From Kiritimatiellia bacterium (GTDB lineage: Bacteria > Verrucomicrobiota > Kiritimatiellia > RFP12 > UBA1067), in contig JBJEWA010000110.1 in NCBI GenBank assembly GCA_051884805.1, forward strand, positions 11,204-75,203: a stretch of 64,000 nt of DNA, given 5' to 3'. The number at the start of each line of letters is the position of its first letter. The stretch's first letter is position 1. Shown here one piece after another: positions 37,025-62,548 of the stretch. Made by a program: the position numbers and the translations under genes. The notes beneath the pieces are model-generated. The model was not told the DNA's origin, did no database searches, and saw nothing but the letters and a program-made list of their open reading frames with translations.

Positions 37025-37034
37025 AAGGATCAAA

Positions 37035-38836: not shown

Positions 38837-38877
38837 TTTCTCCCGATTTGGCGGGAGAACACAAAAGGAGACACAAA

Positions 38878-40799: not shown

Positions 40800-41561
40800 A
40801 TGAAAAACGTCATACCACTCATAGTCGCTGTCGTTCTGGGTCTGGTCGCTGTTCTTGCCGTCAACCGGACGCTGGCCAAGTCGGACAAGGGGCATTCCGG
40901 GAACAAGATCGTGGTCTTGGTGGCGAACGGAAACCTGAAGAGCGGGCATGTCGTCGGCAAGGAGAGCTTTCGCAGTGTCGAGGTTCCGCTGGCATATGCC
41001 CCGAAGCAGCACGTCCTCGGCGACCAGCGGATGTCCATCGTCGGGCAGATGCTCACACGGGACGTCGCCGCCGGCGACTACATCCAGTGGAATGACCTCG
41101 GTCAGTCCCGCGGAACCGGCGAATCGGTCGGCGAAGGCGAGTGGGCGGTCTCGGTCGGCTTTCAGAATGCGGATCTGGTCAAGATGCTCAAGCCCGGGGA
41201 CGAGATCGCCATCGTCGGGATGTTTGATGTCGCCGTCGAGAAGGCGGCGAAGTCGGCGGACGTCGACGCGGAGAAGACGATCGAGCACAAGAAGGTTACG
41301 ACCGTGCTGTTCCCGCAGATGCGCATCATGGAGCTGACCGATGCGGGCACCGTGCTCTTTTCCGTCCCGCCGCAGCAGGCCATGACGCTGCTGGCGGCGC
41401 AAGAGCAGGCGACGCTTTATGCGGCGTTGCGCCGTCCGCATGACGAAAAGGCGACGAATCGCAAGGACAGTGGCGTGTTCGACGGCACGGCGTTTGCGAA
41501 AATGCTTTCCGGGTGTCCGGAGATTACGATACCTGACAAGCCGTTTAACAAGATCAAGTGA
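40800..41561 (+). CDS. cpaB: Flp pilus assembly protein CpaB/RcpC
   Basis: N-terminal TM IPLIVAVVLGLVAVLAV. SAF-like KIVVLVANGNLKSGHVV...MLTRDVAAGDYI. Positioned directly before the secretin gene. Confidence 0.85.
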   Translation: MKNVIPLIVAVVLGLVAVLAVNRTLAKSDKGHSGNKIVVLVANGNLKSGHVVGKESFRSVEVPLAYAPKQHVLGDQRMSIVGQMLTRDVAAGDYIQWNDLGQSRGTGESVGEGEWAVSVGFQNADLVKMLKPGDEIAIVGMFDVAVEKAAKSADVDAEKTIEHKKVTTVLFPQMRIMELTDAGTVLFSVPPQQAMTLLAAQEQATLYAALRRPHDEKATNRKDSGVFDGTAFAKMLSGCPEITIPDKPFNKIK

Positions 41562-41571
41562 GGGGGGAGAG

Positions 41572-43131
41572 ATGAGGAACTTGCTTGCCGTTCTGCTTGC
41601 CTTGTCTGCCGGAGTGCTGTCTGCCGTGCAGAGGGTGACCATCGAAAAAGGCGGTGCCAAGGTGTTGGACCCGGGGTTCCGGGTCACGGCCTACAAGACC
41701 GGAATGAAGGGGATTGTGGGCGTGGAGGAGCTCGAGGGCGGCTCGCTCCGGGTGACGGGGCTGGGTGAGGGCGTGTGCAGTCTCAAGCTGATGGGCGACG
41801 GATCGATGGAGGAGACGTATGAAATCGACGTCGGCAGCGACCTGGCCCAGATTCAACGCAATCTGCAGGCCGAATTGGAGGATGTCGGGGGCATTGAGGT
41901 CGTGCGCATCGGGCGATCGCTTGTCCTGCGAGGGGAGATCAACGATCCCCGCGGGTGGCAGTTGCTGAAGACGACGGTGAAGGGCGCGGAGTACCGTGAG
42001 ATCGTCAGGGATCAGACGGTCTTTCGCGTGCAGGCTGACACTTTGAAGGACTTCCGCCAGCAGCTGAAGGATGCCGGATTCGTCATTACGGACAAGGTCG
42101 ATGACGCCAGTGCGGGCAAGCTCTTTGTCAAGTACGAGGGCAATCTGCTTATCGTCGCGGGCGTGGTTCACTCCCCGGGGGAGAAGGACCGGCTTGAGCG
42201 CATCGTCAGGTCCCAGGGAACCTGGCTCCGGATCGAGGGCGCGTCGTCGTCTGGACAGGAGGACTGGAAGACGGTTTGCCGGATGGACATCTCGGTGGAC
42301 AATTCGCAATTGCGGATGGATGTCGTATTGATCGGCTATGCCGAGACGGACGTCTCGAAATACGGTTCGTCCGACACTTTGCAGCTCGGCGGAGTGTTCC
42401 AGGGGCTGATCGACCTGTATTCCGGCCGGACGCGCCATGATAATTTCACCGTCAACGCCAGTTTGAACAGCACGTTGGGGTTTCTCAAGGAGAACGGAAT
42501 CGCCCGACACTCCATCGGGGGCCACATCTTCTTCAAGAACAACGATCCGGAGGTCCGCAAGCTCAAAATCGGGGGCACGCTGAAGGTCAAGATGCAGGGT
42601 GCGACTGCGGAAGGTGCGCCGACTCAGGATTTCGAGGACATCGAATACGGTTTCTTCATCGACAAGAAGCGGGCGGTCTTGATCGACGGGAAAAGCGTGG
42701 ACGTGGACCTGACAATCAAGCAGAAGACGCCGGAGGCGATGCCGGGAGGCTACGAAGAGGGATACGAGATCCACGAAAACGAGTACAATCCGTCCGTTGT
42801 CTGCCCGTTGGGCAAGACCGTCGTTCTCGCGGGTTACAGGAGCATGCTCGAGGAGAGCTCTCCGCCCTCTGGATTTCCGATTCTCCGGCATATTCCGATC
42901 GTCAACTGGTTCGTGTCTCAAGAGGGGAACCGGATTGAAAACATGAAGCTGATGATGCTGGTGAGCGTCAGGATCGCCGCCGGCGACGAGCCGGAGGCGC
43001 AGCAGGCCGTCTTGCCCTACGAAGATACGAAGAATCTGCCCGCAGAGGTCGAAATACCGAACGACAGACGTTTGGAAGGCCGCCGGAAGTGGCACGGCAT
43101 CATGTATTTCATGAACTGGTTTACCCCCTGA
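41572..43131 (+). CDS. cpaC: Tad-type secretin CpaC/RcpA
   Basis: Signal peptide MRNLLAVLLALSAGVLSA. BON/N-domains. C-terminal secretin motif GFPILRHIPIVNWFVSQ...KLMMLVSVRI. Confidence 0.88.
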   Translation: MRNLLAVLLALSAGVLSAVQRVTIEKGGAKVLDPGFRVTAYKTGMKGIVGVEELEGGSLRVTGLGEGVCSLKLMGDGSMEETYEIDVGSDLAQIQRNLQAELEDVGGIEVVRIGRSLVLRGEINDPRGWQLLKTTVKGAEYREIVRDQTVFRVQADTLKDFRQQLKDAGFVITDKVDDASAGKLFVKYEGNLLIVAGVVHSPGEKDRLERIVRSQGTWLRIEGASSSGQEDWKTVCRMDISVDNSQLRMDVVLIGYAETDVSKYGSSDTLQLGGVFQGLIDLYSGRTRHDNFTVNASLNSTLGFLKENGIARHSIGGHIFFKNNDPEVRKLKIGGTLKVKMQGATAEGAPTQDFEDIEYGFFIDKKRAVLIDGKSVDVDLTIKQKTPEAMPGGYEEGYEIHENEYNPSVVCPLGKTVVLAGYRSMLEESSPPSGFPILRHIPIVNWFVSQEGNRIENMKLMMLVSVRIAAGDEPEAQQAVLPYEDTKNLPAEVEIPNDRRLEGRRKWHGIMYFMNWFTP

Positions 43132-44804
43132 TGATGACGCTGGTTCTGCAGTTTCCGGACGGGCGGACTGAATGTCGCGAACTGCCGGATTCGGACTTCG
43201 CCTGGAACCTCGGCCGGGCCGACGGCTCCGATCTCGTGCTGGCCGCCGGAGACGTATCGCGCCGTCATGCGACGCTGTCGCGAATGTCCGGCACGCTCGT
43301 GCTGGCGGATGCGGAAAGCCGCGGCGGCACGTGGATGAACGGCGAACGCCTCGTCGCCCCGCAGGTGCTCGCTGCGGGTGATGAGTTTCGCGTGGGATCG
43401 TTCCGGCTGAGAATTGAGTCGCGGGTGTCGGCGGCGCATCCCGAACCCCCTCCGCCGGCCCCCTCCCCCGCCCCCGTTCCCGATTCCGTTCCCGACGACG
43501 ACTTCTCCGCCGCCGACATTCTCTACACGGACGAGTGCATGGTGCTGAAGCGCCGTCTGCACGAGCATATCCTTGGCGAGATGAACCTGACCGAGGACGC
43601 CCTCAAGGAGTTCGCCGACGAAACGACGCGCGCCAAGCTGGACGCGTGCGTGGACAGCGCCTTGCGGCAGTTTCGCCACGAATTGCCGGCACAGGTGACG
43701 TTGCCGGACTTCCGGCAGGCGCTGATGGACGAACTGGTCGGCTATGGCCCGCTTTCGCCGATTCTCCGGGACAAGGGCGTTTCGGAGATCATGGTCAACG
43801 GTCCCGAACGCATATTCATCGAGCGCAAGGGCCGTCTTAGGGAAACGGGCGTCCGATTCTACAACGAGCGTCATCTTATTCAGATCATCCAGCGGATTGT
43901 CGAGCCGCTCGGCCGTCACGTCGACGAGGCGAGCCCGATGGTGGACGCTCGCCTGCCTGACGGCAGCCGCGTCAACGCCGTCATCCCGCCGCTGGCCCTG
44001 GACGGCGCGTCGATGACGATCAGAAAGTTCGCCGACAAGAAACTGACGACGGAAGACCTCGTCGGCTTCGGATCGATGACGGAAGAGATGGCGGCGTTCC
44101 TTAAGGAGGCCGTGCGCGTCCGCAAGAACATTCTGGTCTCCGGCGGCACCGGCTCGGGCAAGACGACCCTGCTGAACGTTCTTTCCCAGTTCATTCCGGG
44201 TGGCGAGCGTGTCGTCACGGTCGAGGATTCGGCCGAATTGAAGCTCTCGCACCGGAATATAGTCCGGCTTGAGGCGCGCCCGGCGAACATCGAGGGCAAA
44301 GGGCGAATCGCCATTCGCGATCTCGTGATCAACTGCCTCCGCATGCGTCCGGACCGCATCATCGTCGGCGAATGCCGCGGCGCAGAGGCGCTTGACATGC
44401 TCCAGGCCATGAACACGGGGCATGACGGTTCGCTTACGACGGCGCACGCCAACAATCCGCGAGACGCGCTCTCGCGTCTCGAGAACATGGTGATGATGGC
44501 CGGTTTCGAGCTGCCGAGCTCGGCCATCCGCGAACAGATCGCTTCGGCCATTGACCTGATCGTGCAGCAGACGCGGCTCCCCGACGGATCGCGCAAGATC
44601 GTGAAGATAACGGAGGTGACGGGGCGTGAAGCGGACATGATTCTCCTGCAGGACATCTTCGTTTTCGAACAGGACGGATTCGATTCCGCCGGCAAGGTCC
44701 GGGGACGTCACACGGCTACGGGCAACATTCCCTGTTTCGTCGACGAACTGCGGAAAAGCGGCGACCTTCGCCTTGACATGTCGGTGTTCGTTCCGAAAAC
44801 ATGA
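43131..44804 (+). CDS. cpaF: CpaF/TadA secretion ATPase with N-terminal FHA domain
   Basis: TGATG overlap with the secretin stop. FHA: WNLGRADGSDLVLAAGDVSRRHATL...GGTWMNGERL. Pro-rich linker. Walker A GGTGSGKTT. VEDSAEL. TGHDGSLTTAHAN. Confidence 0.92.
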   Translation: MMTLVLQFPDGRTECRELPDSDFAWNLGRADGSDLVLAAGDVSRRHATLSRMSGTLVLADAESRGGTWMNGERLVAPQVLAAGDEFRVGSFRLRIESRVSAAHPEPPPPAPSPAPVPDSVPDDDFSAADILYTDECMVLKRRLHEHILGEMNLTEDALKEFADETTRAKLDACVDSALRQFRHELPAQVTLPDFRQALMDELVGYGPLSPILRDKGVSEIMVNGPERIFIERKGRLRETGVRFYNERHLIQIIQRIVEPLGRHVDEASPMVDARLPDGSRVNAVIPPLALDGASMTIRKFADKKLTTEDLVGFGSMTEEMAAFLKEAVRVRKNILVSGGTGSGKTTLLNVLSQFIPGGERVVTVEDSAELKLSHRNIVRLEARPANIEGKGRIAIRDLVINCLRMRPDRIIVGECRGAEALDMLQAMNTGHDGSLTTAHANNPRDALSRLENMVMMAGFELPSSAIREQIASAIDLIVQQTRLPDGSRKIVKITEVTGREADMILLQDIFVFEQDGFDSAGKVRGRHTATGNIPCFVDELRKSGDLRLDMSVFVPKT

Positions 44805-44817
44805 GGTGGCGGAAAAC

Positions 44818-45687
44818 ATGAGCGTATCCCTCACGGCACTGGTCTTTGCGGCGACATTCCTGGCGGCTTTCGTCTTCCTCGTCTCGGTGTATCGGACGCT
44901 GATCGGCCGGGCTTTGGCGGAACGGTCGGACTTCCAGGTCCTGACGCCGCTTCGGCGGCTGGTTTCGCCGGTGGCGCTGGTCCGTATCCGGTTCGCGACC
45001 GCCGGCGTCTTGGCCTGTACGGCCGTTCTGGCGCTGCTTTGGGGGCGGGTCGTGTCTCCCTGGGCCGTTGTCGCGCTGGGTGGCGTCGGCGCGGCTGTCG
45101 GTTATCGGCTGCCCATGGTTTGGTTCGCCTGGAAGCTCAAGAAGCGCCGGGAGGCGTTTGACGGGCAGGTGCTGAACCTGACGATGGGGCTTTTCGGCGG
45201 ACTGCGCTCCGGGCAGGCGTTGCCGCAGGCCCTGGCCGCCGTGGCCCAGCGCGTACCCGATCCGATGCGGGAAGAACTCGCCGTCGTCCTGCGCGAGAAC
45301 AAGCTCGGGCTCGAACTGTCCGAGTCGCTCGAACGGCTTCACGCGCGCATGCCCGGCGAGGACCTGCGGCTTCTGGTCACTTCGGTCCGGCTCACGCTGC
45401 AGACGGGCGGCAGCCTGTCGGAGGTGCTGGAACGCATGGTGGAAATGATCCGCTCGCGGACGGAATTCTACGAGAAGCTGAAGACGATGACGGCCCAGGG
45501 ACGCTTCGAGGCGATTGCGATGTCCCTTGCGCCGCTTGTCGTCTACGCGCTCCTGAGGGTTATCGATCCGGAGTTGATGAAGCCGCTGACGTCGACGGCT
45601 GCCGGCTGGTGCGCGATCGGCGGCATCGTCCTGCTCGTTTCCATCGGCTTCTTCATAATCAACAAGATTGTGACGATCGAGGTGTGA
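44818..45687 (+). CDS. tadB: Tad inner-membrane platform protein TadB (T2SSF family)
   Basis: GAGGTGG RBS. Multi-TM T2SSF-like protein directly after cpaF. Confidence 0.85.
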   Translation: MSVSLTALVFAATFLAAFVFLVSVYRTLIGRALAERSDFQVLTPLRRLVSPVALVRIRFATAGVLACTAVLALLWGRVVSPWAVVALGGVGAAVGYRLPMVWFAWKLKKRREAFDGQVLNLTMGLFGGLRSGQALPQALAAVAQRVPDPMREELAVVLRENKLGLELSESLERLHARMPGEDLRLLVTSVRLTLQTGGSLSEVLERMVEMIRSRTEFYEKLKTMTAQGRFEAIAMSLAPLVVYALLRVIDPELMKPLTSTAAGWCAIGGIVLLVSIGFFIINKIVTIEV

Positions 45688-45688
45688 C

Positions 45689-46582
45689 ATGGACGAGATG
45701 TCGTTCTGGACCTATCCGCTCGTTTTCCTGACGGTGTTCGCCTCGTATCTGATGGTGTCCGGCGCGCTGTCCGTGCCGCGTGCGCTGCGCGGTCCGGGCT
45801 GGGAGCGACTGCCGCTTTTCTACCGTCTCTTCCACCGCTATTTCGAGGCCGCGGCATTCGGAATCGGCGCGACCTTGGAGCAGGGCGATCCGGCGCAGGC
45901 CAGGCGCATTCAGGCGACGATTCTCAGAAGCGGCCTGCCCCTGACCGCAGCCAAGGTGCTGGGGGCGCGGGTGGTGGCGGCTCTCTCGGGCGGCATCGTC
46001 GCCTGTCTCGCCGTGTTTCTGCTGAGCGGAGCCGCCGACGTCGCCGTCGGCATCGGGCTGCTGGCCGCATTCCTCGGCTGGGTCTATCCGACGATGGTCG
46101 TCGAGCAGGTCGCCCAGGCGCGCCAGGTCGAGATCATCCGGTCGCTGCCGTTCGCCATCGATCTCATCGTCTCGGCCATGCGCGCTGGCCTTGATTTCGT
46201 GGCGGCCATACGCTACTACGTCTCCCTTGGCGAGCGCGGGGCGCTGTCGGTCGAGTTCGGCCTGATGCTGCGGCAGATGGAGCTCGGGAAGAGCCGCGTC
46301 GAGGCGCTGTCGGAAATGGCGACGCATGTGCAGACCGACGAGTTCACGGCCTTCGTCGGATCGGTTGCGCACGGCACCGAAATCGGCGCTTCGCTCATCG
46401 ACACGCTGAAGATCCAGGGCGAGGACATGCGCCGGGCAAGGTTCAATCTGGCCGAGCGCAAGGCCGCACGGGCGCCCTCGATCATGATCTTTCCCATTGC
46501 GCTCTTCATCCTGCCGGCCGTCGGCATCGTCGTCCTTGTGCCGGTGCTGATGCGTTTCAAGGCGGCGAAGGGGGGTGCGTAA
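45689..46582 (+). CDS. tadC: Tad inner-membrane platform protein TadC (T2SSF family)
   Basis: Starts 1 nt after the tadB stop. T2SSF-like LPFAIDLIVSAMRAGLDF with TM segments. Confidence 0.85.
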   Translation: MDEMSFWTYPLVFLTVFASYLMVSGALSVPRALRGPGWERLPLFYRLFHRYFEAAAFGIGATLEQGDPAQARRIQATILRSGLPLTAAKVLGARVVAALSGGIVACLAVFLLSGAADVAVGIGLLAAFLGWVYPTMVVEQVAQARQVEIIRSLPFAIDLIVSAMRAGLDFVAAIRYYVSLGERGALSVEFGLMLRQMELGKSRVEALSEMATHVQTDEFTAFVGSVAHGTEIGASLIDTLKIQGEDMRRARFNLAERKAARAPSIMIFPIALFILPAVGIVVLVPVLMRFKAAKGGA

Positions 46583-46583
46583 G

Positions 46584-48101
46584 ATGTCCTTTTCCCTCGT
46601 CTTCGCGGTCGGCGGGCCGACGGACGCCCCCGTGCCGGTTGTCGGCGAGCTCTCCGTGCTCGGGCGTTCGCGCAGCTGCGACATCAGGACGGCGCCTGAC
46701 AATCTTTCCATATCCGGTCGCCACCTGTCATTTGCCGCCGTCGCGGACGGCTTGGAGATGACGAATCTCAGTGCGCATCGCACGCTGGCGGACGGACATC
46801 CCCTCGCGCAGGGGGCGAAGGTCGTCTTGCGGGGCGGGGAACGCGTCGAGATCGGCAACGGCTGCGTTTTCGTGGTTCGGGTCGATGGTCTCGCCCCTGC
46901 TCAGGCTGTGCCGGAAGCGCAGGGCGACGAGACCGTGTTGCCGGAGGCGGAACCTCCGGCTGCGGCGCCGGCGGACGAGCCCGGACGCAACAGCCCGCCA
47001 GCGTCCGCAGGAGGGGCTTCCGCGGTCTCCGAGACGGTTTGGCAGCAGACGCAACTGGCGGGCTCCGAGGAAATCGAAAAGCTCAAGGAGCAGCATGCCA
47101 GGGCGCGGACGCGCAGGATGATGATGAAGGTCATGGGCGCGGCGCTGGTCTTCCTCGGCGTGGCGGCTTCGTATTATTTCTTCGTCCGCAAGATACCCGA
47201 GCGGGTCCTCTCGTGGCCATGCAAGGCGGACGGACAGTACGATCGGCAGCGGCAGCTCTTTGACGTCCCGTTCGGCAAGGGTGCGGTCGGCCTGGAATAT
47301 CCTGGCGATCCGTCCTGCCGCGTCGACCGCCAGACGAACGGCACGACGACGGTGACCACGCGTCTCGGCAAGTATCGGGACGTTCCCTATCGGCTGACGT
47401 TCTCCTGCCGTCAGGACGCGGACTTCCTGCACAAGGACCGTGCGCGGCTCTTCGCAGAGCTTCGCGAGCGCCTGGAGGAGCGCGGCGGGTGGAATTTTCA
47501 GGCCGTTTCTCCGGTCCAGTTCCTGGGTCCGGACAACGGCATACCGGCGATGGACGTCCAGTACTACCGGGCGGAACGCCAGGTGGATGACACGCAGCAG
47601 TGGTTTGGGCATCTCCTTTTCGTCGTGCATGGCGACTGCGCCATCACGGTCGCCCGTGAGATTCCTGCCGCGGAGGAATGGCGCGGAGGGCCGTTGCTCG
47701 CAGCCAACGTGCCGCTGCTCTTCACGAGCGCCGTCGTTAGCGGGCACTGGGAAGGGTCGCCCGCGGTCCGGGTCGAGTCGCCGACGCGGCTTCTTGCCGA
47801 GGCGGAGGGCCTGATGTCGGGCAAGGCCGTGTTCCAGTGGCAGGAGATCTCGTTTCTCATCCAGAGTGCGCTTGTCTCCAGTTCGGGACGCGGGCACGAT
47901 GGCGAAAGGGCGCTGGCGCTTCTGCGCCAGTTGCGGCTGCGCCAATCCCGCGAGTTCACGCGCCTGCGCATTCTCTGGGAGCAGCACCGCCGGCTGGGCG
48001 AGTCCGATGCCTGCAAGCGGACGATTGCCGAGGCGTTGAAGATCTTTTCGTCGCCGGACGACCATCGCAACCTGCTTCTGCGGAAAGGAGTCTGGGAATG
48101 A
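46584..48101 (+). CDS. FHA-domain membrane protein (N-terminal FHA, one TM, ~300-aa uncharacterised C-terminal domain)
   Basis: FHA: LSVLGRSRSCDIRTAPDNLSISGRHLSF...GCVFVV. TM: VMGAALVFLGVAASYYFFV. Starts 1 nt after the tadC stop. Confidence 0.85.
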   Translation: MSFSLVFAVGGPTDAPVPVVGELSVLGRSRSCDIRTAPDNLSISGRHLSFAAVADGLEMTNLSAHRTLADGHPLAQGAKVVLRGGERVEIGNGCVFVVRVDGLAPAQAVPEAQGDETVLPEAEPPAAAPADEPGRNSPPASAGGASAVSETVWQQTQLAGSEEIEKLKEQHARARTRRMMMKVMGAALVFLGVAASYYFFVRKIPERVLSWPCKADGQYDRQRQLFDVPFGKGAVGLEYPGDPSCRVDRQTNGTTTVTTRLGKYRDVPYRLTFSCRQDADFLHKDRARLFAELRERLEERGGWNFQAVSPVQFLGPDNGIPAMDVQYYRAERQVDDTQQWFGHLLFVVHGDCAITVAREIPAAEEWRGGPLLAANVPLLFTSAVVSGHWEGSPAVRVESPTRLLAEAEGLMSGKAVFQWQEISFLIQSALVSSSGRGHDGERALALLRQLRLRQSREFTRLRILWEQHRRLGESDACKRTIAEALKIFSSPDDHRNLLLRKGVWE

Positions 48102-50536: not shown

Positions 50537-50736
50537 AGGACGACGGTCGCAACGAAGGCGGATCCGTGCTCATGGAGTACCTCGTCGTCACGATGGCGGT
50601 GGCGCTTCCGCTTGTCGTCCTCTGGCATACGCAGATTTACGACTCGACGGAGGGTTGCTACCGCGGCGAGATAGGATTGGGGTTGCAGGCGATGTTTCAG
50701 CGGGTGCTGGCACACGTCGCCCTGCCGATTCCGTAA
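50533..50736 (+). CDS. Small Flp/TadE-like prepilin (67 aa)
   Basis: TTG start overlapping the upstream stop (TTGA). The leader, then G-SVLM-EY-LVVTMAVAL, fits the Flp G/xxxxEY processing motif. Confidence 0.6.
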   Translation: MKDDGRNEGGSVLMEYLVVTMAVALPLVVLWHTQIYDSTEGCYRGEIGLGLQAMFQRVLAHVALPIP

Positions 50737-50752
50737 ACAAGAAGGGAAACCG

Positions 50753-51106
50753 ATGAAAAAAGACCGCAAGATGAAATGTCGAATTCAACGGGCCAAGCGT
50801 TCCGCGCTCGGCCGTGTCCTCTGTCGCCTGGCGGGCGACGCGGCCGGCGCCGTGATGATGGAGTACATCGTTCTCGCCGTGCTGCTCGTCGCCGCGACCG
50901 TCGGCATCGTCGTCCTCTTCGGGCGCTACATGCGCGCCGAATGGTACACGGCCATGCTCGCGATGATGGGCAAGACCGACTCCGCCGCCGCGAACCAGGA
51001 GACGATGCAGGGCAATGTCAAGCAGAATGCCGAAACTGTCAACAACCAGGGCAACACGATTGACGGCGGCAGCAATTCGGGCACGCAGCATACGATGGCC
51101 GAATGA
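50753..51106 (+). CDS. flp: Flp-family pilin with long leader and Asn/Gln/Thr-rich C-terminal tail (117 aa)
   Basis: AG-AVMM-EY-IVLAVLLVAATVGIVVLFG matches the Flp motif. Tail: NQETMQGNVKQNAETVNNQGNTIDGGSNSGTQ. Confidence 0.8.
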   Translation: MKKDRKMKCRIQRAKRSALGRVLCRLAGDAAGAVMMEYIVLAVLLVAATVGIVVLFGRYMRAEWYTAMLAMMGKTDSAAANQETMQGNVKQNAETVNNQGNTIDGGSNSGTQHTMAE

Positions 51107-54865: not shown

Positions 54866-54886
54866 GGTTACAGCGAAAGGAATGAC

Positions 54887-55951
54887 ATGCGAAAGACAGT
54901 CAGGTGGAGTTGGGCCGTGGCGGCGGTGAGCGCCTGTGTGGCGGGCGCGGCGTTTGCGGCGAGCGAGCCGACGGGCGTCAGACCGTCGTTCAGACAGGAT
55001 CTCGGCGATGCCGACGGGCGCATGGCGGCCTACCTGTGCGCGTTGGGCGATTTCCGAAATGCCGCCGTCGAGAAGGCGTCGGCCGTAGTCGCCCGGCAGT
55101 TCGTCCCCGCCGCACAGACGAAGTGGAACGCCGACGTGGCGGCTGAGATGGACGATCGGCTGCTGGCGGACTTTTTCCGTGGCGCCATCGCGATGACCGG
55201 CCCCCAGACACCGGACGGCGGCATCGGAGGCCTGTACAACCCCTGGTGGGATGCGCTGCTGGTGATGCGTCTCAAGCCCAAGGAGAACGGTCCGGAAGCG
55301 TCCTTTGCGGTGACGGAGTTCCATTTCCTGAGCGGCGAGACCTTCCGCGGCGAACCCGTAGAGCGCGATCCGAAGGAGATTTCCTGCCGGACGGTCGTGC
55401 CGGAGGGCGATCCGCTTTCGGTCGAGCTGTGGCGCGTCGTCGCGGCAACGCGGCGGAAGTTCGAGCAGGCGTTTCCGATGGACGGAAAGGTCGGTTGGGG
55501 CGGATTTGCGTCCAAGCTGCTGGCGCTGGACCGCGTCCGCGAACATCAGCGCATCGTGGCGAGGGCGGCCTTGCGTCTCAAGCTCCGCCAGACGATTCTG
55601 CGCGATCCTGCGGCGCTGGGCAAGTCCAAGGTGTTCGAGAATCTCGTCAGGACTGGCAATCACTATCAGCTCTTCACCTACTTTCGCGATCCGAACTGTT
55701 TCGGCGTCATGCGGACGCTTTCGGAGCTGCCGGCGGTCTTCCGCCAGGATTTCACGCTTTATGGCTACGTGCCGACGACGGAGGGCGCCCAGTATCTTTA
55801 TGTGAACGCCAAGGTGCCGCGGCTTTACGCAACGATTGCGGTTCCGAAGGACGTCGGGAAAAGGCCGGCGTCGCTGGAATGGTTCGACCTGGCCCAGGCC
55901 GACGACCTGCTGCGCGTTTGGAATGCCCGTGACGACAAGGAGGCGAAATGA
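54887..55951 (+). CDS. Secreted protein of unknown function within the Tad operon
   Basis: Signal peptide MRKTVRWSWAVAAVSACVAGAAFA. 354 aa with no recognisable domain. Confidence 0.7.
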   Translation: MRKTVRWSWAVAAVSACVAGAAFAASEPTGVRPSFRQDLGDADGRMAAYLCALGDFRNAAVEKASAVVARQFVPAAQTKWNADVAAEMDDRLLADFFRGAIAMTGPQTPDGGIGGLYNPWWDALLVMRLKPKENGPEASFAVTEFHFLSGETFRGEPVERDPKEISCRTVVPEGDPLSVELWRVVAATRRKFEQAFPMDGKVGWGGFASKLLALDRVREHQRIVARAALRLKLRQTILRDPAALGKSKVFENLVRTGNHYQLFTYFRDPNCFGVMRTLSELPAVFRQDFTLYGYVPTTEGAQYLYVNAKVPRLYATIAVPKDVGKRPASLEWFDLAQADDLLRVWNARDDKEAK

Positions 55952-57714
55952 AAATGCAGAACTTGCGGTCTTCGGCCGTATCGGTCGTCCTGCTGTCGCT
56001 GTCCGTGTTTTCGCACGCTCCGGCACTGGCGCTGGAAGGCGGGAACTCGGGCGCTTCCTCGACGGGGTCCGGTTCCCTGTCGGCGGACGTCGCGACCCTG
56101 GTGACGGACAAGTTCGGGGAGGTCGTCGGCAGGACCGTCGCCGACGAGGGCCTGGCGCAGATGGTGACGGAAGCCGTCAAGACGAAAATCGACGAGGCGC
56201 TCCAAAAGGGCGAGAAGTGGGTTGAGGATGGCGGCATCCGCAAGACCGTCCAGGAGCAGTTGGAGAAGCAGCTTGACGGCAAGGTTTCCGACGCGGACAA
56301 GCAGCGCATCCTCAATCTTGCGGACACGCTCTGCAACGTCGGCGCCGACGGCGGCGTGAGCTTCGTCCAGACGCTTGGAAGCGACGGCAAGGACCTGGCC
56401 GTCTCGCTCGCGGTGAAGGAAATCGAGCGGCAGATCTCCTCCGCGCTGCCCAAAGACGTCGCGGACAACGTCAACGCCATGGTCGAGGTGCTGGCCGCTA
56501 CGGGGAACGTCAACGATCCGTCCGTCAGGGCGGAGATGATCAACGCGATCCAGTCGGCCGTCTCCGAATACGTGCCGTATGCGAATTCCGCCACGACGAT
56601 CAACGATCTCGTCCGGCAGATTGCGGACGGCCAGGCCGTGGACGTGATGACTGCGGCCAAGGACCTCGGCAAGAGCATCGGCGTGGACGCGCTCAAGGAG
56701 GCCGTTTCGGCGAATCTGGACAAGGCGGCTGCCGAGCGGGTGAACGCGCTGATCGACGCCTATACGAAGGATGGCGTTGGGGGCCTGACGGACGCCGCGA
56801 TCGCGGAGATCGTCGCGGCCATCGACAAGTATGCGCCCGGGACGGATTCCTCCAATGCGCTCAAGGACGTCGTCGGCAAGCTGAAGGACGGCACGATCCA
56901 GGCGTCCGACCTGAAGAAAGCCGCCACCGCACTCGGCGTGGACGGCACGAAGAAGCTGATCGATTCGAGCAATCTCACGGACGAGCAGAAGAATGCGGCC
57001 AAGGAGGCGGTTGATGCGATCGCTGAGAACGGCTGGTCCGGACTTACCGACTGCGTTCAGGAATACATCCGGCAGAATGTCACGGACAGGTTGGGTCAGG
57101 AGGCTGGCGATGCCGTCGCCAACATCTTTGAAGCCGTCGTCAATCCGGGCGTGGACGTCTGGGACGCGCTGAACACGAATGCGCCGATTATCGGCAAGGC
57201 GCTGGTCGATACGGCGCTGGTGAGAGTGGAGCAGTGGACGGCCGATCAGCTCGACCGGCTGATCGCCAAGAATCCCTTTATCGCCGAATTGTTCGGCAGA
57301 TTGGGCATCGACGGCAGTGGCATCGTCGCGGGCGTGAAGAACATCTGGAACGTTCTCAGCACCAAGGACATGGCGGAGGCCTTCGCCGAACTGTCGCAGA
57401 TGGCGGTTGATTTCCTGAAGGACATCGCCGCCAAGCTGATTGACTGGGGGGTCGAGGCGCTTATGAACTGGGCCAATTCGATCATCGGCAAGGTCATCGA
57501 TTGGCTTGCCCAGATGATCGGCAATGCCGCACAGGCGGTTGGCGACGTGCCGGCGATACGAAGCGCCTTGCAGAAGCTGCAGTGCGCGTTGTGCGCCGCC
57601 AAGACGAACGGCACGCTGACGGTGTCCGCCTGTGGCGTAGGTTCGAATGTCGTCAACTGGATCGAGGGCAAGGTCAATTCGAAAAAGAAGACGGAAGGCA
57701 AGATCGACAAGTGA
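55948..57714 (+). CDS. Secreted Ala/Asp/Lys-rich, predicted all-helical protein of unknown function (588 aa)
   Basis: ATGA overlap (alternative ATG 55954). Signal peptide LRSSAVSVVLLSLSVFSHAPALA. Low-complexity helical sequence throughout. Confidence 0.7.
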   Translation: MKMQNLRSSAVSVVLLSLSVFSHAPALALEGGNSGASSTGSGSLSADVATLVTDKFGEVVGRTVADEGLAQMVTEAVKTKIDEALQKGEKWVEDGGIRKTVQEQLEKQLDGKVSDADKQRILNLADTLCNVGADGGVSFVQTLGSDGKDLAVSLAVKEIERQISSALPKDVADNVNAMVEVLAATGNVNDPSVRAEMINAIQSAVSEYVPYANSATTINDLVRQIADGQAVDVMTAAKDLGKSIGVDALKEAVSANLDKAAAERVNALIDAYTKDGVGGLTDAAIAEIVAAIDKYAPGTDSSNALKDVVGKLKDGTIQASDLKKAATALGVDGTKKLIDSSNLTDEQKNAAKEAVDAIAENGWSGLTDCVQEYIRQNVTDRLGQEAGDAVANIFEAVVNPGVDVWDALNTNAPIIGKALVDTALVRVEQWTADQLDRLIAKNPFIAELFGRLGIDGSGIVAGVKNIWNVLSTKDMAEAFAELSQMAVDFLKDIAAKLIDWGVEALMNWANSIIGKVIDWLAQMIGNAAQAVGDVPAIRSALQKLQCALCAAKTNGTLTVSACGVGSNVVNWIEGKVNSKKKTEGKIDK

Positions 57715-58496
57715 AGTCGGTGCGGACAGGCGTATCGCAGGGCAGCGTGCTCATGGAGTGCATAGTTGTCCTGCCGCTTTACCTGGCGCTGTTCGGCGGC
57801 CTGTTCTTTCTCGGGGAGGTTGCGGTCAACCGCCTGCGGATGAAGGTCGGCGACTTCTCCGTGACGTGGATGGGCGGTGACCGGCACGGCGTCGAAGTGT
57901 CGGGCGATGACCGATTCGGGATGGAGTACCTCTTCCAGGAGCGTTTCGACTCCAAGGGCTCGTACAGCGTCTGGGAGGCGCAGTATGCGAACGGCAGCGG
58001 CACGGCCGTCAACAAGATCAACTACCACTCCGCACTCTATCAGGGATGCGTCGATTTCACCGTCGGCATCCCCGATTGGATTCGCGGCCTGCTCTTTGCC
58101 CAGACCGCCATGACGGGCGCGGAAGACGGGTTGCCGGATGTGGACGGACCGCCCGGCGTTCGTGAGTGGGATGCCGTGAATGAGGTCGCGATCTTCGGGG
58201 GCGATTCCTATCCGCGTTCCGTCTCGATACACCGCATCCGCCCGGCGACGCTCCAGGATCCGTCCTTTGCCGCGGTGCTGAGGACAAACTACAACCGCGC
58301 CCGCACGGGAGGGGATGCGGAAATGGACTGGCCGGCCAAACGCGCACAGGTCATGCTGGCGGACAACACGCTGCTCAATGTCATTGCCGACAGTTGGATC
58401 GTGTCGGTCCAAGACGTAGGTGCGAACAACGTGCAGGCGATCAGCCAGGTGACTGCCGCCGATGTTCCGCGGGCGCTCGCACAGTTTGGAGAGTAG
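57711..58496 (+). CDS. Second TadE-like pseudopilin
   Basis: GTGA overlap. N-terminus SQGSVLMECIVVLPLYLALFGGLFF is the TadE-type motif. Confidence 0.7.
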   Translation: MKSVRTGVSQGSVLMECIVVLPLYLALFGGLFFLGEVAVNRLRMKVGDFSVTWMGGDRHGVEVSGDDRFGMEYLFQERFDSKGSYSVWEAQYANGSGTAVNKINYHSALYQGCVDFTVGIPDWIRGLLFAQTAMTGAEDGLPDVDGPPGVREWDAVNEVAIFGGDSYPRSVSIHRIRPATLQDPSFAAVLRTNYNRARTGGDAEMDWPAKRAQVMLADNTLLNVIADSWIVSVQDVGANNVQAISQVTAADVPRALAQFGE

Positions 58497-58500
58497 GGAT

Positions 58501-58968
58501 ATGAAAGCGACGATTATGCTGGTTCTGGCGCCGAGCCTCGTCCTCGGCGTGGCGATGGCCGAGACGGGGGGAGCGGCGGGAAACGAGCCACCGCGTTCGT
58601 GCGGGTGCGCACGCCCTGCTCCGTCCGAAGCGGACACCGGGGTGACGGCGGAGCAGCTGGATGCGGCGATTGCCGAACTGCAGCTGCTCAAGACGCGGAT
58701 TCCGCCGGGCGGATCGCTCAAGCCGCCGACCCCGAAGGAAATCGTCGCGCAGCTGGAGGCGTTCAGAAGCGAACCGGAATTTGCGCAGCTGCCGGAGGAG
58801 CAGCGACGGAAGTTCGAGGAGGGGGTGGCGCAGTTGCGCCGAGAATTGTTGCACAAGCCGGCGGCCGCCCGTCCTGCGCACGGCTGGACGTCAGCCAGTC
58901 CTTCGCCCTATGTCGTTCGCGAAAACGGACGGAGCGTTTACTTCATTCCGAAAGGACGCCGGCGGTGA
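58501..58968 (+). CDS. Small secreted protein of unknown function
   Basis: Signal peptide MKATIMLVLAPSLVLGVAMA. Helical middle region AEQLDAAIAELQLLK. Confidence 0.65.
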   Translation: MKATIMLVLAPSLVLGVAMAETGGAAGNEPPRSCGCARPAPSEADTGVTAEQLDAAIAELQLLKTRIPPGGSLKPPTPKEIVAQLEAFRSEPEFAQLPEEQRRKFEEGVAQLRRELLHKPAAARPAHGWTSASPSPYVVRENGRSVYFIPKGRRR

Positions 58969-59792
58969 GCGGGCGTTTCGAACACGTTTCGTTCGCGGCG
59001 AAAAGCGACCCCGGCCTGCAGCGCACCCGGAACGAGGACGCCTTCGGCGCGTTTCCCGCCTACGGCGTCTGGTGTGTCGCGGACGGCATGGGCGGCGGCC
59101 AGGACGGGGCTCTCGCTTCTGCGACGGCAGTCCGGTTCGTTGAGAACTATCTCCGGTCGTTTCCGCCGCTCGACCGCGCGAGCTATGCCATCGACGACGT
59201 CCTGGACAATGTGCGGGATGCGGTCAACGAAGCGTCGGAGTTCCTTTTTGATCACACGAAAAGGCTCGGACTCAAGGGGTGCGCCACGACGTTTGCCTGC
59301 ATTTGCCTGGACGGGGCCCGTCCGACGGCGGCGTTCGTCCTGCATGCGGGAGACAGCCGCGTTTATCGCCTGCGGGACGGCGTGTTGCGGCAGGTCACCA
59401 AGGACCATTCGCTCTCCGAGGCGATGGGGGTGGACGAGTCGCGCCTCAGCTGCGATCTGCGGTCGATTATCACGCGCGGCGTTGGCGTGGAAAGCGAAGT
59501 CGTGCTTGAAACGTCGCCTGTCGATCTGGCCGAAGGGGATTCGATTCTCCTCTGTACCGACGGATTGACGCGGATGGTTCCCGCTGACACGATACGGGCC
59601 GTCCTGTCGTCGGATGGGGCCTGCGACGAACAGGTGGCCTCGCTCGTTGCCGCGGCCAACGGGGCCGGGGGCGTGGACAACGTGACGGTGGAGGTGCTGA
59701 AGCTCGGGAAGCTGCCGCCGGAAAGCGACACGGTGGAAATGCGGGACGAAGATAGAATGAATACCGTCCATGTGTCGGATCGCGTCCGATGA
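58965..59792 (+). CDS. PP2C-family Ser/Thr phosphatase
   Basis: GTGA overlap. RTRNEDAF, CVADGMGG, CTDGLTRMV and GGVDNVTV are the PP2C metal-binding motifs. Confidence 0.9.
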   Translation: MSGRFEHVSFAAKSDPGLQRTRNEDAFGAFPAYGVWCVADGMGGGQDGALASATAVRFVENYLRSFPPLDRASYAIDDVLDNVRDAVNEASEFLFDHTKRLGLKGCATTFACICLDGARPTAAFVLHAGDSRVYRLRDGVLRQVTKDHSLSEAMGVDESRLSCDLRSIITRGVGVESEVVLETSPVDLAEGDSILLCTDGLTRMVPADTIRAVLSSDGACDEQVASLVAAANGAGGVDNVTVEVLKLGKLPPESDTVEMRDEDRMNTVHVSDRVR

Positions 59793-59852
59793 GGGATCCA
59801 GTGTGGCTGTCTCGTGTAACCCTAACTCCAACTAAGATCAATCAGAACTGAC

Positions 59853-60914
59853 ATGCAGGACAACAATTCGTTTCTGACGCTGTTCCTTCAACCGGTGGCG
59901 GAATATCTCGGTGACGACACCGTCAGCGAGATCCTGATCAACGGGCCCGCATGCGTGTACGTCGAACGCAAAGGCAAGCTGGAGGAGGCGCCGGCGAAGT
60001 TCGTGAGCGAACCGGCCCTGAAGGCGGCGGCCGCGAACATCGCCAAGTCGGTCGGACGAATCCTCGACGAGATGCATCCGCAGCTTGACGCTCGTCTCCC
60101 GGATGGCAGCCGCGTTCATGCGGTAATTCCGCCGCTCTCGCGGGTCGGAACGGTCATTGCGATCCGCAAATTCAAGAAGGATACGCTCACCGTCGACAAG
60201 ATGCTGGCTTTCGGCAGCATGGACGAAAAGCTGCGGCGGCTCGTCCGCGCCCTGGTTCTCCTGCACAAGAACGTGATCGTGTCGGGGGCGACTAGCTCCG
60301 GCAAGACCTCCGTTCTCAATGCCTTGAGCTCCTTCATTCCCGGGAACGAGCGCGTGCTGGTCATCGAGGACGCCAGCGAGCTTCAGCTTCAGCAACGGCA
60401 CGTCGTGCCGTTCGAGACGCGCAAGGCGGACAAGAACGGACAGGGCGAGGTGACGATTCGCGATCTCATCCGTTCGGCGTTGCGGCTCCGCCCCGACCGT
60501 ATTGTCATCGGCGAGATTCGCGGCGGCGAAGCGCTCGATCTGCTGCAGGCGCTCAATACGGGCCACGCCGGCTCGATGAGCACGATTCACGCGAACTCGC
60601 CGCTGGATGCCTTGAGCCGCATTGAGACCTGCGCGCTCCTGAGCGGCATCGACATCCCCCTGGCGGCCCTTCGCGCTCAGGTCGCGAGCGCCATCGGCGC
60701 GGTCGTCCATACGGCGCGGCTTGCCGACGGTTCGCGCAAGGTCGTGTCGGTTTCCGAAGTGCTTCCGCTCGACGGCGGCGACTATCGCGTCCGGGAGCTG
60801 CGCCGTTGGAAAACGGAGTCCATTTCGCCTGACGGCACCGTCTGCGGCGTTTTTGCAACCGGCGACGCGCCCTCGTTCGCCGAAGATGCCCGCATTGCCG
60901 GCATCGAACTGTAA
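59853..60914 (+). CDS. Second, short CpaF/VirB11-like secretion ATPase (no FHA domain)
   Basis: ILINGPACVYVERKGKL. Walker A GATSSGKTS. VIEDASEL. DRIVIGEIRGGEALDLLQALNTGHAGSMSTIHAN. Confidence 0.88.
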   Translation: MQDNNSFLTLFLQPVAEYLGDDTVSEILINGPACVYVERKGKLEEAPAKFVSEPALKAAAANIAKSVGRILDEMHPQLDARLPDGSRVHAVIPPLSRVGTVIAIRKFKKDTLTVDKMLAFGSMDEKLRRLVRALVLLHKNVIVSGATSSGKTSVLNALSSFIPGNERVLVIEDASELQLQQRHVVPFETRKADKNGQGEVTIRDLIRSALRLRPDRIVIGEIRGGEALDLLQALNTGHAGSMSTIHANSPLDALSRIETCALLSGIDIPLAALRAQVASAIGAVVHTARLADGSRKVVSVSEVLPLDGGDYRVRELRRWKTESISPDGTVCGVFATGDAPSFAEDARIAGIEL

Positions 60915-60925
60915 GGTTGCCGGTT

Positions 60926-62548
60926 ATGGACGTTTCTCGTATGCCCAAGGAGGGCGACCGGTTCGGCAACTGGATTATCGAGCGTACGCTTGATAAGGGC
61001 GGGATGGGACAGGTTTATCTCGCTTATAATCCCGATCTCGGGAAATCCGAGAAGGTTGCGCTGAAAGTCCTTGATCCGACCGTGGCCGAACGGGATGCTG
61101 ATTTTGTCAAGCGATTCTACCAAGAGGCATCCATTGTATTCAAGACGCATTGTCCGCACCTTGTGTCGATTCACGATGCGGGACGTGATGCTTCTTCGGG
61201 TTGCTACTATATCGTCATGGAGCATCTTGGCGGCGGTACGCTGCGCGACCGGATTCGGAGCCGGGGCCGCATTCCGTGGCGGGAGGCGCTGTCCGTCGTC
61301 CGGTCGGTCGCCGTGGCCCTTGCGGCCGTCGCCAAGCGGAACTCCGTCCATCGCGACATCAAGCCGGAGAACATCATGTTCACGGCGGACGGGGTTGTCA
61401 AGCTGGCGGACTTTGGCATCGCCAAGGCGGCGCAGGATGACGTGCCGGACAATGCCGATCCGTTGAAGACCCGCGCCTTGCAGATATTCGGCACGCCGTC
61501 CTATATGTCGCCGGAGCAGATGTCCGACGCTTCCAATGTCGATGCCCGCGCCGACATCTGGAGTTTGGGCGTCGTCCTCTTCGAGATGCTCGCCGGCGCA
61601 AGGCCCTATCCCGCGCAGGATCTCGTTCAGGCCGGGGCGTTTCTGCTCTCGCCGCAGCCTTTCCCCGACATCCGCACGTTTAAGGCCCCCGTCATGGTCG
61701 GTGCGCCGCTACCGGCGGAAGAAGCCATGCAGACTCAGGCTACGGTGGCAACGCTGGCGATGTGCGCGGATGCCGTGGAGGTTCCCGACGAAGTGGCCGA
61801 CCTGTTGGCCCGAATGTGCGACAAGGATCTTGGCCAGCGCATCGCCACGAGCGAAGCGGTGATCGAGGTCATCGACCGACTGCTGAAGGATTCCGATTCG
61901 ACCTCGGCTGAGGCTCCCGCTGCGGCACGGCTCGCGTCCGCGACGCGGCACGCATCCGTTTCGAGGCAGCCGCACACGGGGCGGAAAAGATGGTTGCTCC
62001 GGATTGCCTGTGCCGCTCTTGCCGTGATTTTGGGCGTACTTGGCGCTTTTGTGCTTCGGCAGCCGCATCCGCCTGCCACCTCGGCCCCCGTGTCGCCCAA
62101 TCCGACCAATCGGCCTGCGTCTAAGGTCCAGGGGACGGCGGCAAACGCGAAAACGGCCGTCTCGGGTAATGTCATGGCGAAGCCCCCGCAGCCGCTCCCG
62201 CCGGTCGCACCGACCGTCTCTCCCGCTCCTCCGTCAGGCCCGACGACGGCGGTTCTCCGGACGGTGTCGCAAGTTTCGGTATTCCAGCCGCAGCGCGGAA
62301 GCATCGCTTCGGTCCTTTCGCAGTTGGATGCGGAGATTGGCAAAAAGCCCGTCCGTCTCAAGGTGTCGCTGTCGGCCTTGGCGCAGCTAAAGGACTTGTC
62401 GGTCGAGCGCTACGAACAGCAGCTGCTGGTTCCGGCGATAGAACGTTTGCAGATGTCCGGAGTGAGCTTTTCTCTCGTGCCTGGTCCGGGGAAATATGGC
62501 TCGGTTGTCCGAGAGCTGGCCAGACGATTCGGTTGTGACCTTGATTGA
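60926..62548 (+). CDS. Hanks-type Ser/Thr protein kinase, single TM, Pro-rich linker and small extracytoplasmic C-terminal domain
   Basis: GGMGQVY, ALKVL, HRDIKPENIMF, DFGIAK, GTPSYMSPEQ. TM: LLRIACAALAVILGVLGAFVL. Confidence 0.92.
   Translation: MDVSRMPKEGDRFGNWIIERTLDKGGMGQVYLAYNPDLGKSEKVALKVLDPTVAERDADFVKRFYQEASIVFKTHCPHLVSIHDAGRDASSGCYYIVMEHLGGGTLRDRIRSRGRIPWREALSVVRSVAVALAAVAKRNSVHRDIKPENIMFTADGVVKLADFGIAKAAQDDVPDNADPLKTRALQIFGTPSYMSPEQMSDASNVDARADIWSLGVVLFEMLAGARPYPAQDLVQAGAFLLSPQPFPDIRTFKAPVMVGAPLPAEEAMQTQATVATLAMCADAVEVPDEVADLLARMCDKDLGQRIATSEAVIEVIDRLLKDSDSTSAEAPAAARLASATRHASVSRQPHTGRKRWLLRIACAALAVILGVLGAFVLRQPHPPATSAPVSPNPTNRPASKVQGTAANAKTAVSGNVMAKPPQPLPPVAPTVSPAPPSGPTTAVLRTVSQVSVFQPQRGSIASVLSQLDAEIGKKPVRLKVSLSALAQLKDLSVERYEQQLLVPAIERLQMSGVSFSLVPGPGKYGSVVRELARRFGCDLD

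Follow-up and report, generated by a model that had tools for sequence, protein, structure and literature searches.

Introduction

How is the motor of a Tad pilus held and controlled when its locus encodes no TadZ? Tad pili are usually described with one bifunctional motor, positioned by TadZ. The question is raised by a gene cluster in a 64,000-nucleotide stretch of DNA from a Kiritimatiellia bacterium (GenBank assembly GCA_051884805.1, contig JBJEWA010000110.1, positions 11,204 to 75,203; the whole stretch is called the window, and positions are counted from its first letter). By homology, the cluster encodes a type IVc (Tad/Flp) pilus machine of a lineage common to Kiritimatiellota and Lentisphaerota. 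It is read here, with rather more confidence than doubt, as a phospho-controlled, TadZ-less Tad pilus in which an FHA scaffold and a kinase/PP2C pair would govern an adhesive or contact output.

The cluster had been noticed in a preliminary description made from the DNA letters alone. The domain calls given there agree with profile searches (Pfam, NCBIfam), those of the flp and tadE-like open reading frames (ORFs) resting on motif and homologues; the reported union of four FHA domains, two CpaF-family ATPases, a PP2C phosphatase, and a Hanks kinase in one unit is matched by Pfam. A link to Kil, the Tad-like contact-dependent prey-killing apparatus of Myxococcus xanthus (Seef et al. 2021, PMC8460266; Herrou et al. 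2025, PMC12075869), had been suggested there and holds: KilF is an FHA::CpaF protein, several FHA proteins are present, a TadD and a TadZ-type ATPase are not (PMC8460266), and KilD gives a profile match. The novelty claimed for the system was overstated, as FHA::CpaF is the class III architecture of CpaF (PMC12019362) and an FHA-rich, TadZ-less Tad system is the named subtype Kil. Already described, then, are FHA::CpaF and the FHA-rich Tad machine without TadZ and TadD; what looks undescribed is the kinase/PP2C pair, the short second CpaF, and the distribution in the Planctomycetes-Verrucomicrobia-Chlamydiae (PVC) group. In the literature searched, which covered some but not all journals, there was no description of a Tad-dedicated kinase/phosphatase pair, of a short second CpaF, or of the PVC distribution; nothing was found on Kiritimatiellota Tad pili, nor on CpaF together with FHA, threonine kinase, and phosphatase.

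Results

A conserved Tad gene cluster without recognizable TadZ or TadD

Twenty ORFs and nine overlapping junctions had been reported for positions 40800–62548. ORF calling guided by G+C content at third codon positions (GC3), with inspection of start codons, gave 19 ORFs, all in the same direction; the nine overlaps of 1–4 nucleotides stood (TGATG, ATGA five times, TTGA, and GTGA twice; proximal start codons assumed). All genes of the system described below lie on the + strand. The core is complete by homology, with CpaB, secretin, CpaF motor, TadB/TadC, two Flp-like pilins, TadV, and TadE/TadG/TadF-like minor pilins.

Nine independent contigs carrying related loci (L001–L009) were compared with the window by tblastn. 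The core order cpaB, secretin, FHA::cpaF, tadB, tadC, FHA/TM (TM, transmembrane), 2xFHA/TM, flp, flp, tadV, tadE, tadG, unk13 is kept from 42–75% down to 24–30% protein identity, in Kiritimatiellota and Lentisphaerota (L007 comes from a Lentisphaeria metagenome-assembled genome; the other named matches are Victivallales or Lentisphaeria). The gene cluster is real and conserved, not a product of chance.

Proteins of the ParA, MinD, CbiA, and TadZ families were found neither in the cluster nor among six upstream and nine large other ORFs of the window (Pfam and NCBIfam, some searches at E<=5), and the called genes of L001–L009 include none of the ParA/MinD type. A TadD-type tetratricopeptide repeat (TPR) protein was found in no window ORF (Pfam/NCBIfam); in the nine loci, weak or faint TPR matches fell on two proteins near the second ATPase gene, in L008 and L009, and otherwise there were none. 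The preliminary description could recognize neither TadZ/CpaE nor TadD, and it had left room for a divergent form of either among the FHA or other ORFs; hidden Markov model (HMM) searches of the window ORFs returned no such form. At HMM level, the absence of TadZ and TadD within the locus is real. This absence matters because the Caulobacter CpaE forms a ring of six dimers round the CpaF hexamer in situ and is termed ubiquitous in Tad systems (PMC13170226); as far as the sequences tell, the position of that ring has no occupant encoded in the window locus.

FHA domains on the motor and on two membrane proteins

Of the four FHA domains of the locus, one is on the motor and three are on two bitopic inner-membrane proteins. 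The motor ATPase FHA::CpaF (43131–44804) joins an FHA domain (E 1e-13) to a T2SSE domain (E 2e-66); it matched TIGR03819 with E 8e-100 and 334 bits, under the 373-bit cut-off, and falls within the CpaF radiation in a neighbor-joining tree (235 CpaF columns, 300 bootstraps, published Kil supermatrix; one protein, rough method). PVC FHA::CpaF sequences form their own clade there (100%), outside a group that unites KilF with the beta/gamma TadA (74%); the raw identity of the PVC motors is 44–45% with KilF vs 49–52% with beta/gamma TadA. The FHA domain of CpaF keeps residues G28, R29, S43, and H46 in every one of 28 sequences, from PVC bacteria and Myxococcus (KilF) alike.

The first membrane protein, FHA/TM (46584–48101; FHA E 1.6e-5; TM residues 179–197; predicted periplasmic domain of ~300 amino acids), is encoded after tadC in all loci compared. 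Its family profile matched FHA domains in PDB at 2e-10, the FHA part only; a single-sequence AlphaFold2 (AF2) model of the periplasmic domain had a predicted local distance difference test score (pLDDT) of 41.6 and was unusable. Close to the membrane on its cytoplasmic side (residues ~150–165), six of seven homologues keep the motif E-T-x3-Q-T-x2-[AV]-S-x-[ED]-E-[LI], the rest of the linker being unalignable; E-T-x3-Q-T is a candidate phospho-acceptor site.

The second, 2xFHA/TM (48098–50536), resembles KilD and has two FHA stretches (E 9e-29), a TM segment at about residues 223–251, and an all-alpha domain of 560 amino acids. Its AF2 model had a pLDDT of 88.8; in a Foldseek comparison with PDB, the best 50 matches listed were all FHA domains, with none for the C-terminal domain. 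Residues G39, R40, S56, H59, and N78 of the first FHA domain (FHA1) are invariant. In a library clustered at 50% identity, the 2xFHA profile (E<=1e-30) matched 532 representatives, and nearly all of the top 150 are full length; because of this number the system is, to judge by its scaffold protein, common in metagenomes and not a singleton. FHA/TM, 2xFHA/TM, and the kinase described below are all predicted to be bitopic inner-membrane proteins with cytoplasmic N-termini (TM segments, positive-inside flanks; AF2 model). Yop-YscD_cpl matches were also seen among the window proteins (Pfam).

Kinase, phosphatase, and second ATPase

Downstream of the pilin genes lie three further genes: a cytoplasmic PP2C (PPM) phosphatase (58965–59792; PP2C_2 E 6e-14; DGMGG, GDSR, DG, and DN motifs present), a second CpaF-family ATPase of 353 amino acids (ATPase2; 59853–60914; T2SSE E 4e-54; TIGR03819 E 2e-89), and a receptor-type Hanks Ser/Thr kinase (60917–62548; Pkinase E 2e-44; VALK, HRD, DFG, and SPE intact). 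The predicted layout of the kinase is a kinase domain, a TM segment (357–375), and ~170 amino acids outside the membrane. The PP2C gene overlaps the preceding gene by 4 nucleotides, and the kinase gene starts 2 nucleotides after ATPase2.

In the related loci the same genes recur in other arrangements. PP2C homologues adjoin the core in L002 (38% identity) and L008 (46%); orthologues of the window kinase are present in L009 (full-length, 49% identity) and L003 (42%). L002 has a PP2C gene and three kinase genes directly 3' of the 2xFHA gene; L003 ends with kinase and ATPase2, in that order; L005 has a kinase gene upstream of cpaB; L008 has PP2C, dual kinase, and ATPase2, in that order; L009 has ATPase2, two genes, an LpoB gene, and then the kinase orthologue. 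ATPase2 was seen in four loci (window, L003, L008, and L009), each time adjacent to a kinase. Because the linkage survives these differing gene orders, kinase, phosphatase, and ATPase2 would seem to belong to the Tad machine; linkage that withstands rearrangement is the strongest argument for this and the best available evidence for functional coupling.

Two of these loci hold further genes of note. In L002 (13232–18977), one of the kinases after PP2C is an FHA::kinase fusion and another, of 1092 amino acids, carries Sel1 repeats and carboxypeptidase-regulatory-like domains. In L008 (11159–18171), the module of PP2C, dual kinase, and ATPase2 is followed by a two-partner secretion pair, an ShlB-type transporter and a TpsA protein of >1700 amino acids.

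ATPase2 aligns to motor residues 206–544 with 45% identity. It is without the FHA domain, the disordered linker, and the three-helix bundle of the motor; Walker A, Walker B, and His box are intact. In the neighbor-joining tree it forms its own clade (100% bootstrap) inside the CpaF radiation, and it did not arise by recent duplication of the main motor; relatives of 83–92% identity fall in >100 clusters. Assignment to the PilT-type retraction ATPases or to VirB11 was rejected, the TadA-family model scoring best (300 bits vs 56 for pilT_fam and 214 for VirB11) and the position in the tree being inside the CpaF radiation. A better conservation of ATPase2 than of the motor was likewise rejected: where both were compared on one related contig, identity is 88.6% for the CpaF core and 89.5% for ATPase2, and it is the FHA/linker part of CpaF alone that evolves fast. 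An anti-phage defense system was considered and dismissed; PADLOC gave only generic matches for the kinase (PD-T4-6, mad6) and none for the other proteins.

Extent of the locus

The preliminary start at 40800 is probably too late. Because lipoprotein-type genes upstream of cpaB are linked to the cluster in relatives, the system probably begins near 35.5 kb, as gene order suggests; with these genes the total comes to 25–26 ORFs. In two Lentisphaerota loci (L006 and L007), homologues of the LpoB-family, DUF1425, PEGA, and 492-amino-acid proteins are among the genes directly upstream of cpaB. In the window, the upstream set comprises a DUF1425 (YcfL-like) lipoprotein (35519–35911; Pfam E 1.3e-15), whose gene also adjoins cpaB in L006 with a weak tblastn match; a PEGA-domain secreted protein (35945–37024; Pfam PEGA E 1.2e-5), also encoded upstream of cpaB in L006; an LpoB-like lipoprotein (37011–37652; Pfam LpoB E 7e-17), whose family is encoded immediately upstream of cpaB in L006 and L007 and between ATPase2 and the kinase in L009; a predicted lipoprotein of 387 amino acids (37673–38836; signal peptide and Cys lipobox; no match in Pfam or NCBIfam) and a small predicted lipoprotein of 126 amino acids (38848–39228; lipobox VMTGC; no significant family), both counted in by position only; and a secreted 492-amino-acid protein (39311–40789) with no sequence relative in Pfam or PDB, whose tblastn homologues of 31–47% identity lie upstream of cpaB in L006 and L007. 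These upstream proteins may be the best candidates to do at the outer membrane the accessory work done in other systems by TadD and RcpB.

The locus, from ~35.5 to 62.5 kb, is most likely one transcription unit. At ~34 kb of the window the G+C content drops by about 6 points, from 0.68–0.72 to 0.60–0.66. A sigma-70-like promoter match (34273–34302, + strand; TTGACA-18-TACAAT with the TG of an extended -10; 11 of 12 matches) lies just past the GH97 stop codon at 34231 and hints at a start of the transcription unit; such sites are no more frequent in the window than expected from shuffling. An ORF of 228 amino acids with a signal peptide and GLQ[IL]G-type repeats lies at 34820–35506 and has no family match.

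Core machinery and neighboring genes

CpaB/RcpC (alignment protein; 40800–41561) has SAF and RcpC matches, with TIGR03177 at E 2.7e-18, below the curated cut-off, and is kept in L001–L007 (tblastn). The CpaC/RcpA secretin (41572–43131; Secretin E 6e-9) has 519 amino acids, Secretin as the sole domain detected (Pfam), and homologues of 24–52% identity in L001–L007. The platform proteins TadB (44806–45687; E 1e-14) and TadC (45689–46582; E 3e-15) have one T2SSF domain each.

Two Flp-like prepilins (50533–50736, motif G/SVLMEY, kept in L001–L009; 50753–51106, motif G/AVMMEY) are followed by the TadV/CpaA prepilin peptidase (51103–51636; Peptidase_A24 E 1.8e-12), a short protein of 177 amino acids with Peptidase_A24 only and no methyltransferase domain, by the TadE minor pilin (51633–52388; TadE E 2e-7; motif G/TVLME), and by a large TadG-like minor pilin of 826 amino acids (52385–54865; Tad, PF13400, E 6e-6 at the N-terminus; homologues of 25–39% identity). 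The latter is a candidate for the backbone of the tip, by analogy with KilN/TadG tips (PMC12075869). A second TadE/TadF-like minor pilin is encoded at 57711–58496 (motif G/SVLME; L009 homologue of 30% identity; Pfam TadE E 1.1, non-significant). All five pilin-like ORFs have the class-III signal motif G/x-V-[LM]-M-[EF]; both flp ORFs and the tadE-like ORF of the window (57711–58496) gave no significant Pfam match, and Flp_Fap was found in the flp2 homologues of L006 and L007.

Three secreted proteins are encoded among the minor pilins. The conserved unk13 (54887–55951; signal peptide) has homologues of 34–42% identity at the same position in L001, L004, L005, and L009, and no match in Pfam and PDB sequence searches. 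The Ala/Val/Asp-rich unk14 (55948–57714) occupies a variable slot, with homologues of 26–36% identity in L001 and L009. The small unk16 (58501–58968; signal peptide) has no family match in Pfam. In L004 (18370–22002), an RHS/YD-shell repeat protein of 1210 amino acids follows unk13, where the window has unk14. The slot after unk13 in these Tad loci would appear to be a variable slot for cargo, adhesin, or toxin.

The remaining window encodes carbamoyl-phosphate synthase and many glycoside hydrolases (GH97, GH39, GH116, rhamnosidase), as expected for the phylum. The 2xFHA protein, FHA::CpaF, and ATPase2 each have a counterpart of 100% identity in a Kiritimatiellia metagenome-assembled genome at NCBI. 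At 7321–12031, secreted Gly_rich_2 and right-handed beta-helix proteins are encoded, and in-frame ORF calls overlap at 10439–10640. At 19019–22035, long ORFs conflict between strands (19019–21403 on the + strand; 19490–20332 and 20947–22035 on the - strand), with atypical GC3.

Discussion

Proposed mechanism and its weak points

Phospho-gating of this Tad machine is plausible from the encoded proteins: the phosphate-contacting Arg and Ser are invariant in the FHA domain of CpaF and in FHA1, and the catalytic motifs of kinase and PP2C are intact. In the mechanism proposed, the two FHA/TM proteins would replace the CpaE ring around the motor, and their periplasmic domains would link the motor to CpaB and the secretin. 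The extracytoplasmic tail of the kinase would sense a cue from the envelope or the surface, and the kinase would phosphorylate threonines in cytoplasmic linkers of machine components, the E-T-x3-Q-T site of FHA/TM among the candidates. FHA domains would read these marks and dock or activate FHA::CpaF on TadBC; PP2C would reverse the marks and reset the system. ATPase2, having no FHA domain, would escape phospho-control and may serve as an alternative motor, for example in retraction. The output is most likely an adhesive or contact pilus with a tip of TadE, TadG, and TadF-like protein; by default, the fiber is read as one that adheres to particles, hosts, or other cells.

Several points weigh against this interpretation. 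In the second FHA domain of 2xFHA/TM, the phosphate-binding Arg is replaced by Ser (S147, nearly invariant), and the canonical Asn is lacking in the FHA domains of CpaF and FHA/TM. FHA folds can also work without phosphothreonine, as in PrgH/YscD of the type III secretion system (T3SS) inner ring. No PP2C was seen in L003 or L009, and no kinase within the 10 kb fetched for L001, L004, L006, and L007, where the flanks are too short for the equivalent position. PVC genomes are rich in Hanks kinases, so the kinase genes may in part be neighbors by chance. A gene for TadZ or TadD could lie in another part of the genome, and the role of ATPase2 as an alternative motor is a guess. A bolder form of the proposal, in which kinase and PP2C write and erase marks on a membrane-anchored FHA scaffold that replaces the TadZ ring, and the phospho-state decides between the FHA-bearing CpaF, which would dock on a phosphorylated scaffold only, and the minimal paralogue without FHA domain and three-helix bundle, would make this a two-motor, phospho-switched Tad machine; we regard it as doubtful.

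Alternative readings

The degenerate residues in several of the FHA domains, the phosphothreonine-independent FHA folds of T3SS inner rings, the Yop-YscD_cpl matches in the window, and the absence of PP2C from some loci would all be accounted for by an ordinary adhesive Tad pilus, in which the FHA domains are purely structural and kinase, PP2C, and ATPase2 serve other pathways. Such a reading leaves unexplained why the phosphate-contacting Arg and Ser are invariant in the CpaF FHA domain and in FHA1 of the 2xFHA protein, why the three enzymes stay Tad-linked in differing order and position, and why PP2C shares a 4-nucleotide overlap with the preceding gene and the kinase begins 2 nucleotides after ATPase2; we hold it to be unlikely. 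A pilus that exports unk13, unk14, and unk16 as a Tad-derived pseudopilus, similar to a type II secretion system (T2SS) and without an external fiber, would suit the three to four signal-peptide proteins encoded between the minor pilin genes and the conservation of unk13. The two Flp-type pilins and the full TadE/TadG set are those of fiber-forming Tad systems, the signals on the secreted proteins are ordinary Sec signals, nothing speaks specifically for such export, and we know of no precedent for a Tad system as a secretion system; this reading is highly improbable.

Contact-dependent killing or antagonism of the Kil type, with the pilus holding a target while toxins, possibly cargo of the variable slot, are delivered, is suggested by the hallmarks common to both systems (FHA::CpaF, a KilD-like 2xFHA protein, neither TadZ nor TadD) and by a TadE/TadG/TadF-like set resembling Kil tips; the RHS/YD-shell protein in the unk14 slot of L004 and the two-partner secretion pair after the ATPase2 module of L008 point the same way. 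The RHS protein, however, is present in only one of nine loci, the motor is not sister to KilF in the neighbor-joining tree, where the PVC sequences are a clade of their own, no homologue of the other Kil-specific proteins or of Tip1–4 was found (no search aimed at them was made), the window has no needleless T3SS partner, and its glycoside hydrolases (GH97, GH39, GH116, rhamnosidase) are those of a polysaccharide degrader. Killing of this kind is quite unlikely to be the function here, and the phospho-controlled adhesive or contact pilus is preferred.

Significance

The FHA-rich Kil subclass had been reported to occur in predatory deltaproteobacteria alone. An FHA motor with a KilD-like scaffold is found in two PVC phyla of anaerobic polysaccharide degraders, and the design is no oddity of predators, because the scaffold family has hundreds of representatives. 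The signaling enzymes only postulated for Kil are encoded here in the operon, so that the kinase serving the FHA domains in such a machine becomes open to direct test. As a dedicated second motor of a Tad machine, the conserved short ATPase2 is a concrete candidate. If true, the two-motor phospho-switch would contrast with the single bifunctional motor held to be a hallmark of Tad, and could supply the missing kinase logic of Kil-type contact sensing. The system may govern the attachment of abundant gut and sediment Kiritimatiellota and Lentisphaerota to particles, hosts, and other cells.

Comparison with known systems

With the canonical Tad systems (Aggregatibacter flp-tadV-rcpCAB-tadZABCDEFG; Caulobacter cpa), the window locus shares CpaB/RcpC, CpaC/RcpA, CpaF/TadA, and TadB/TadC, as well as Flp-type pilins with the G/xxxxEY motif, a short A24 peptidase, and TadE and TadG pseudopilins. 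It differs from them in being without TadZ/CpaE, the TPR pilotin TadD, and RcpB, and in adding the FHA/TM proteins, kinase, phosphatase, second ATPase, and DUF1425/PEGA/LpoB-like lipoproteins.

Kil is the closest in its parts. Its motor KilF is fused to FHA, further FHA proteins are MXAN_3104, KilD, MXAN_4648, and MXAN_4649, a single ATPase is present, and TadD, TadG, and RcpB are reported absent (PMC8460266). The window motor is 44% identical to KilF over full length, FHA included; the window locus also has further FHA proteins, no TadZ-type second ATPase, no TadD, and a TadE/TadG/TadF-like minor pilin set. The 2xFHA and KilD families align with an hhalign probability of 99.9% (E 8e-35; 295 aligned columns) through FHA1, FHA2, a TM-like segment, and the first helices of the next domain. 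Because the profile alignment runs through all of these, the two families have a common FHA-FHA-TM-helical architecture; the C-terminal domain of the 2xFHA protein differs in aligning with KilD over its first ~90 residues only. KilD is listed as a cytoplasmic protein in the original Kil paper (PMC8460266). In the Myxococcus KilD of locus L012 (11244–13466), a hydrophobic stretch of ~20 residues follows both FHA domains and corresponds in the alignment to the TM helix of the 2xFHA protein from PVC bacteria.

The window genes lie in one cluster and those of Kil in two; besides a second CpaF paralogue, the window locus encodes its own Hanks kinase and PP2C, whereas neither PMC8460266 nor PMC12075869 mentions a Kil kinase or phosphatase. 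In tblastn, the secretin and other proteins have diverged too far from Kil to be matched. The Kil comparison set comprised 80 Myxococcales KilF loci, with tadB/tadC in none of them, and a kinase match was found in the flanks of only two of the 80. The Kil authors proposed for the FHA proteins a signaling cascade resembling PpkA/Fha1 of the type VI secretion system (T6SS) (PMC8460266). Kil has been reported to be confined to Myxococcales, Bdellovibrionales, and Bradymonadales; traits of the subclass are core proteins KilF/G/H/B that branch in the clade of these orders, an over-representation of FHA proteins including KilD, a short secretin without N0 domain, assembly at prey contact sites, and prey killing (Seef et al. 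2021). The host of the window is a PVC polysaccharide degrader and not a known predator. The machine may be called Kil-type in its parts list; the one phylogenetic test gives no support for placing it in the Kil clade.

CpaF orthologues have been sorted into three architectures, of which class III, FHA-IDR-3HB-NTD-CAD, is reported mostly from betaproteobacteria (PMC12019362). In the window motor, an N-terminal FHA domain is followed by a Pro-rich linker, by a helical region, and by the ATPase core; by domain matches and alignment the motor fits this class, and it differs in its occurrence in PVC phyla; ATPase2 is without the three-helix bundle that PMC12019362 counts in the minimal CpaF architecture. 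In the Tad system of Bdellovibrio, TadA is fused to a ParA/MinD-like TadZ that binds RomR, a polarity hub, and the genome has tadA in a second copy (bioRxiv 10.64898/2026.07.08.737194). Both systems have this second copy, and in both the motor bears a regulatory or positioning module at its N-terminus; the fused module is TadZ there and FHA in the window locus. By analogy, the threonine-phosphorylation pathway of the P. aeruginosa H1-T6SS (PpkA/PppA/Fha1) may offer a parallel in signaling, its parts list being the same, with a membrane Hanks kinase bearing an extracytoplasmic domain, a PP2C, and an FHA protein in the operon of the machine. It gates another machine and has the soluble Fha1, whereas the FHA domains of the window are fused to the motor and to a membrane scaffold; homology between the two systems was established for the shared domains only.

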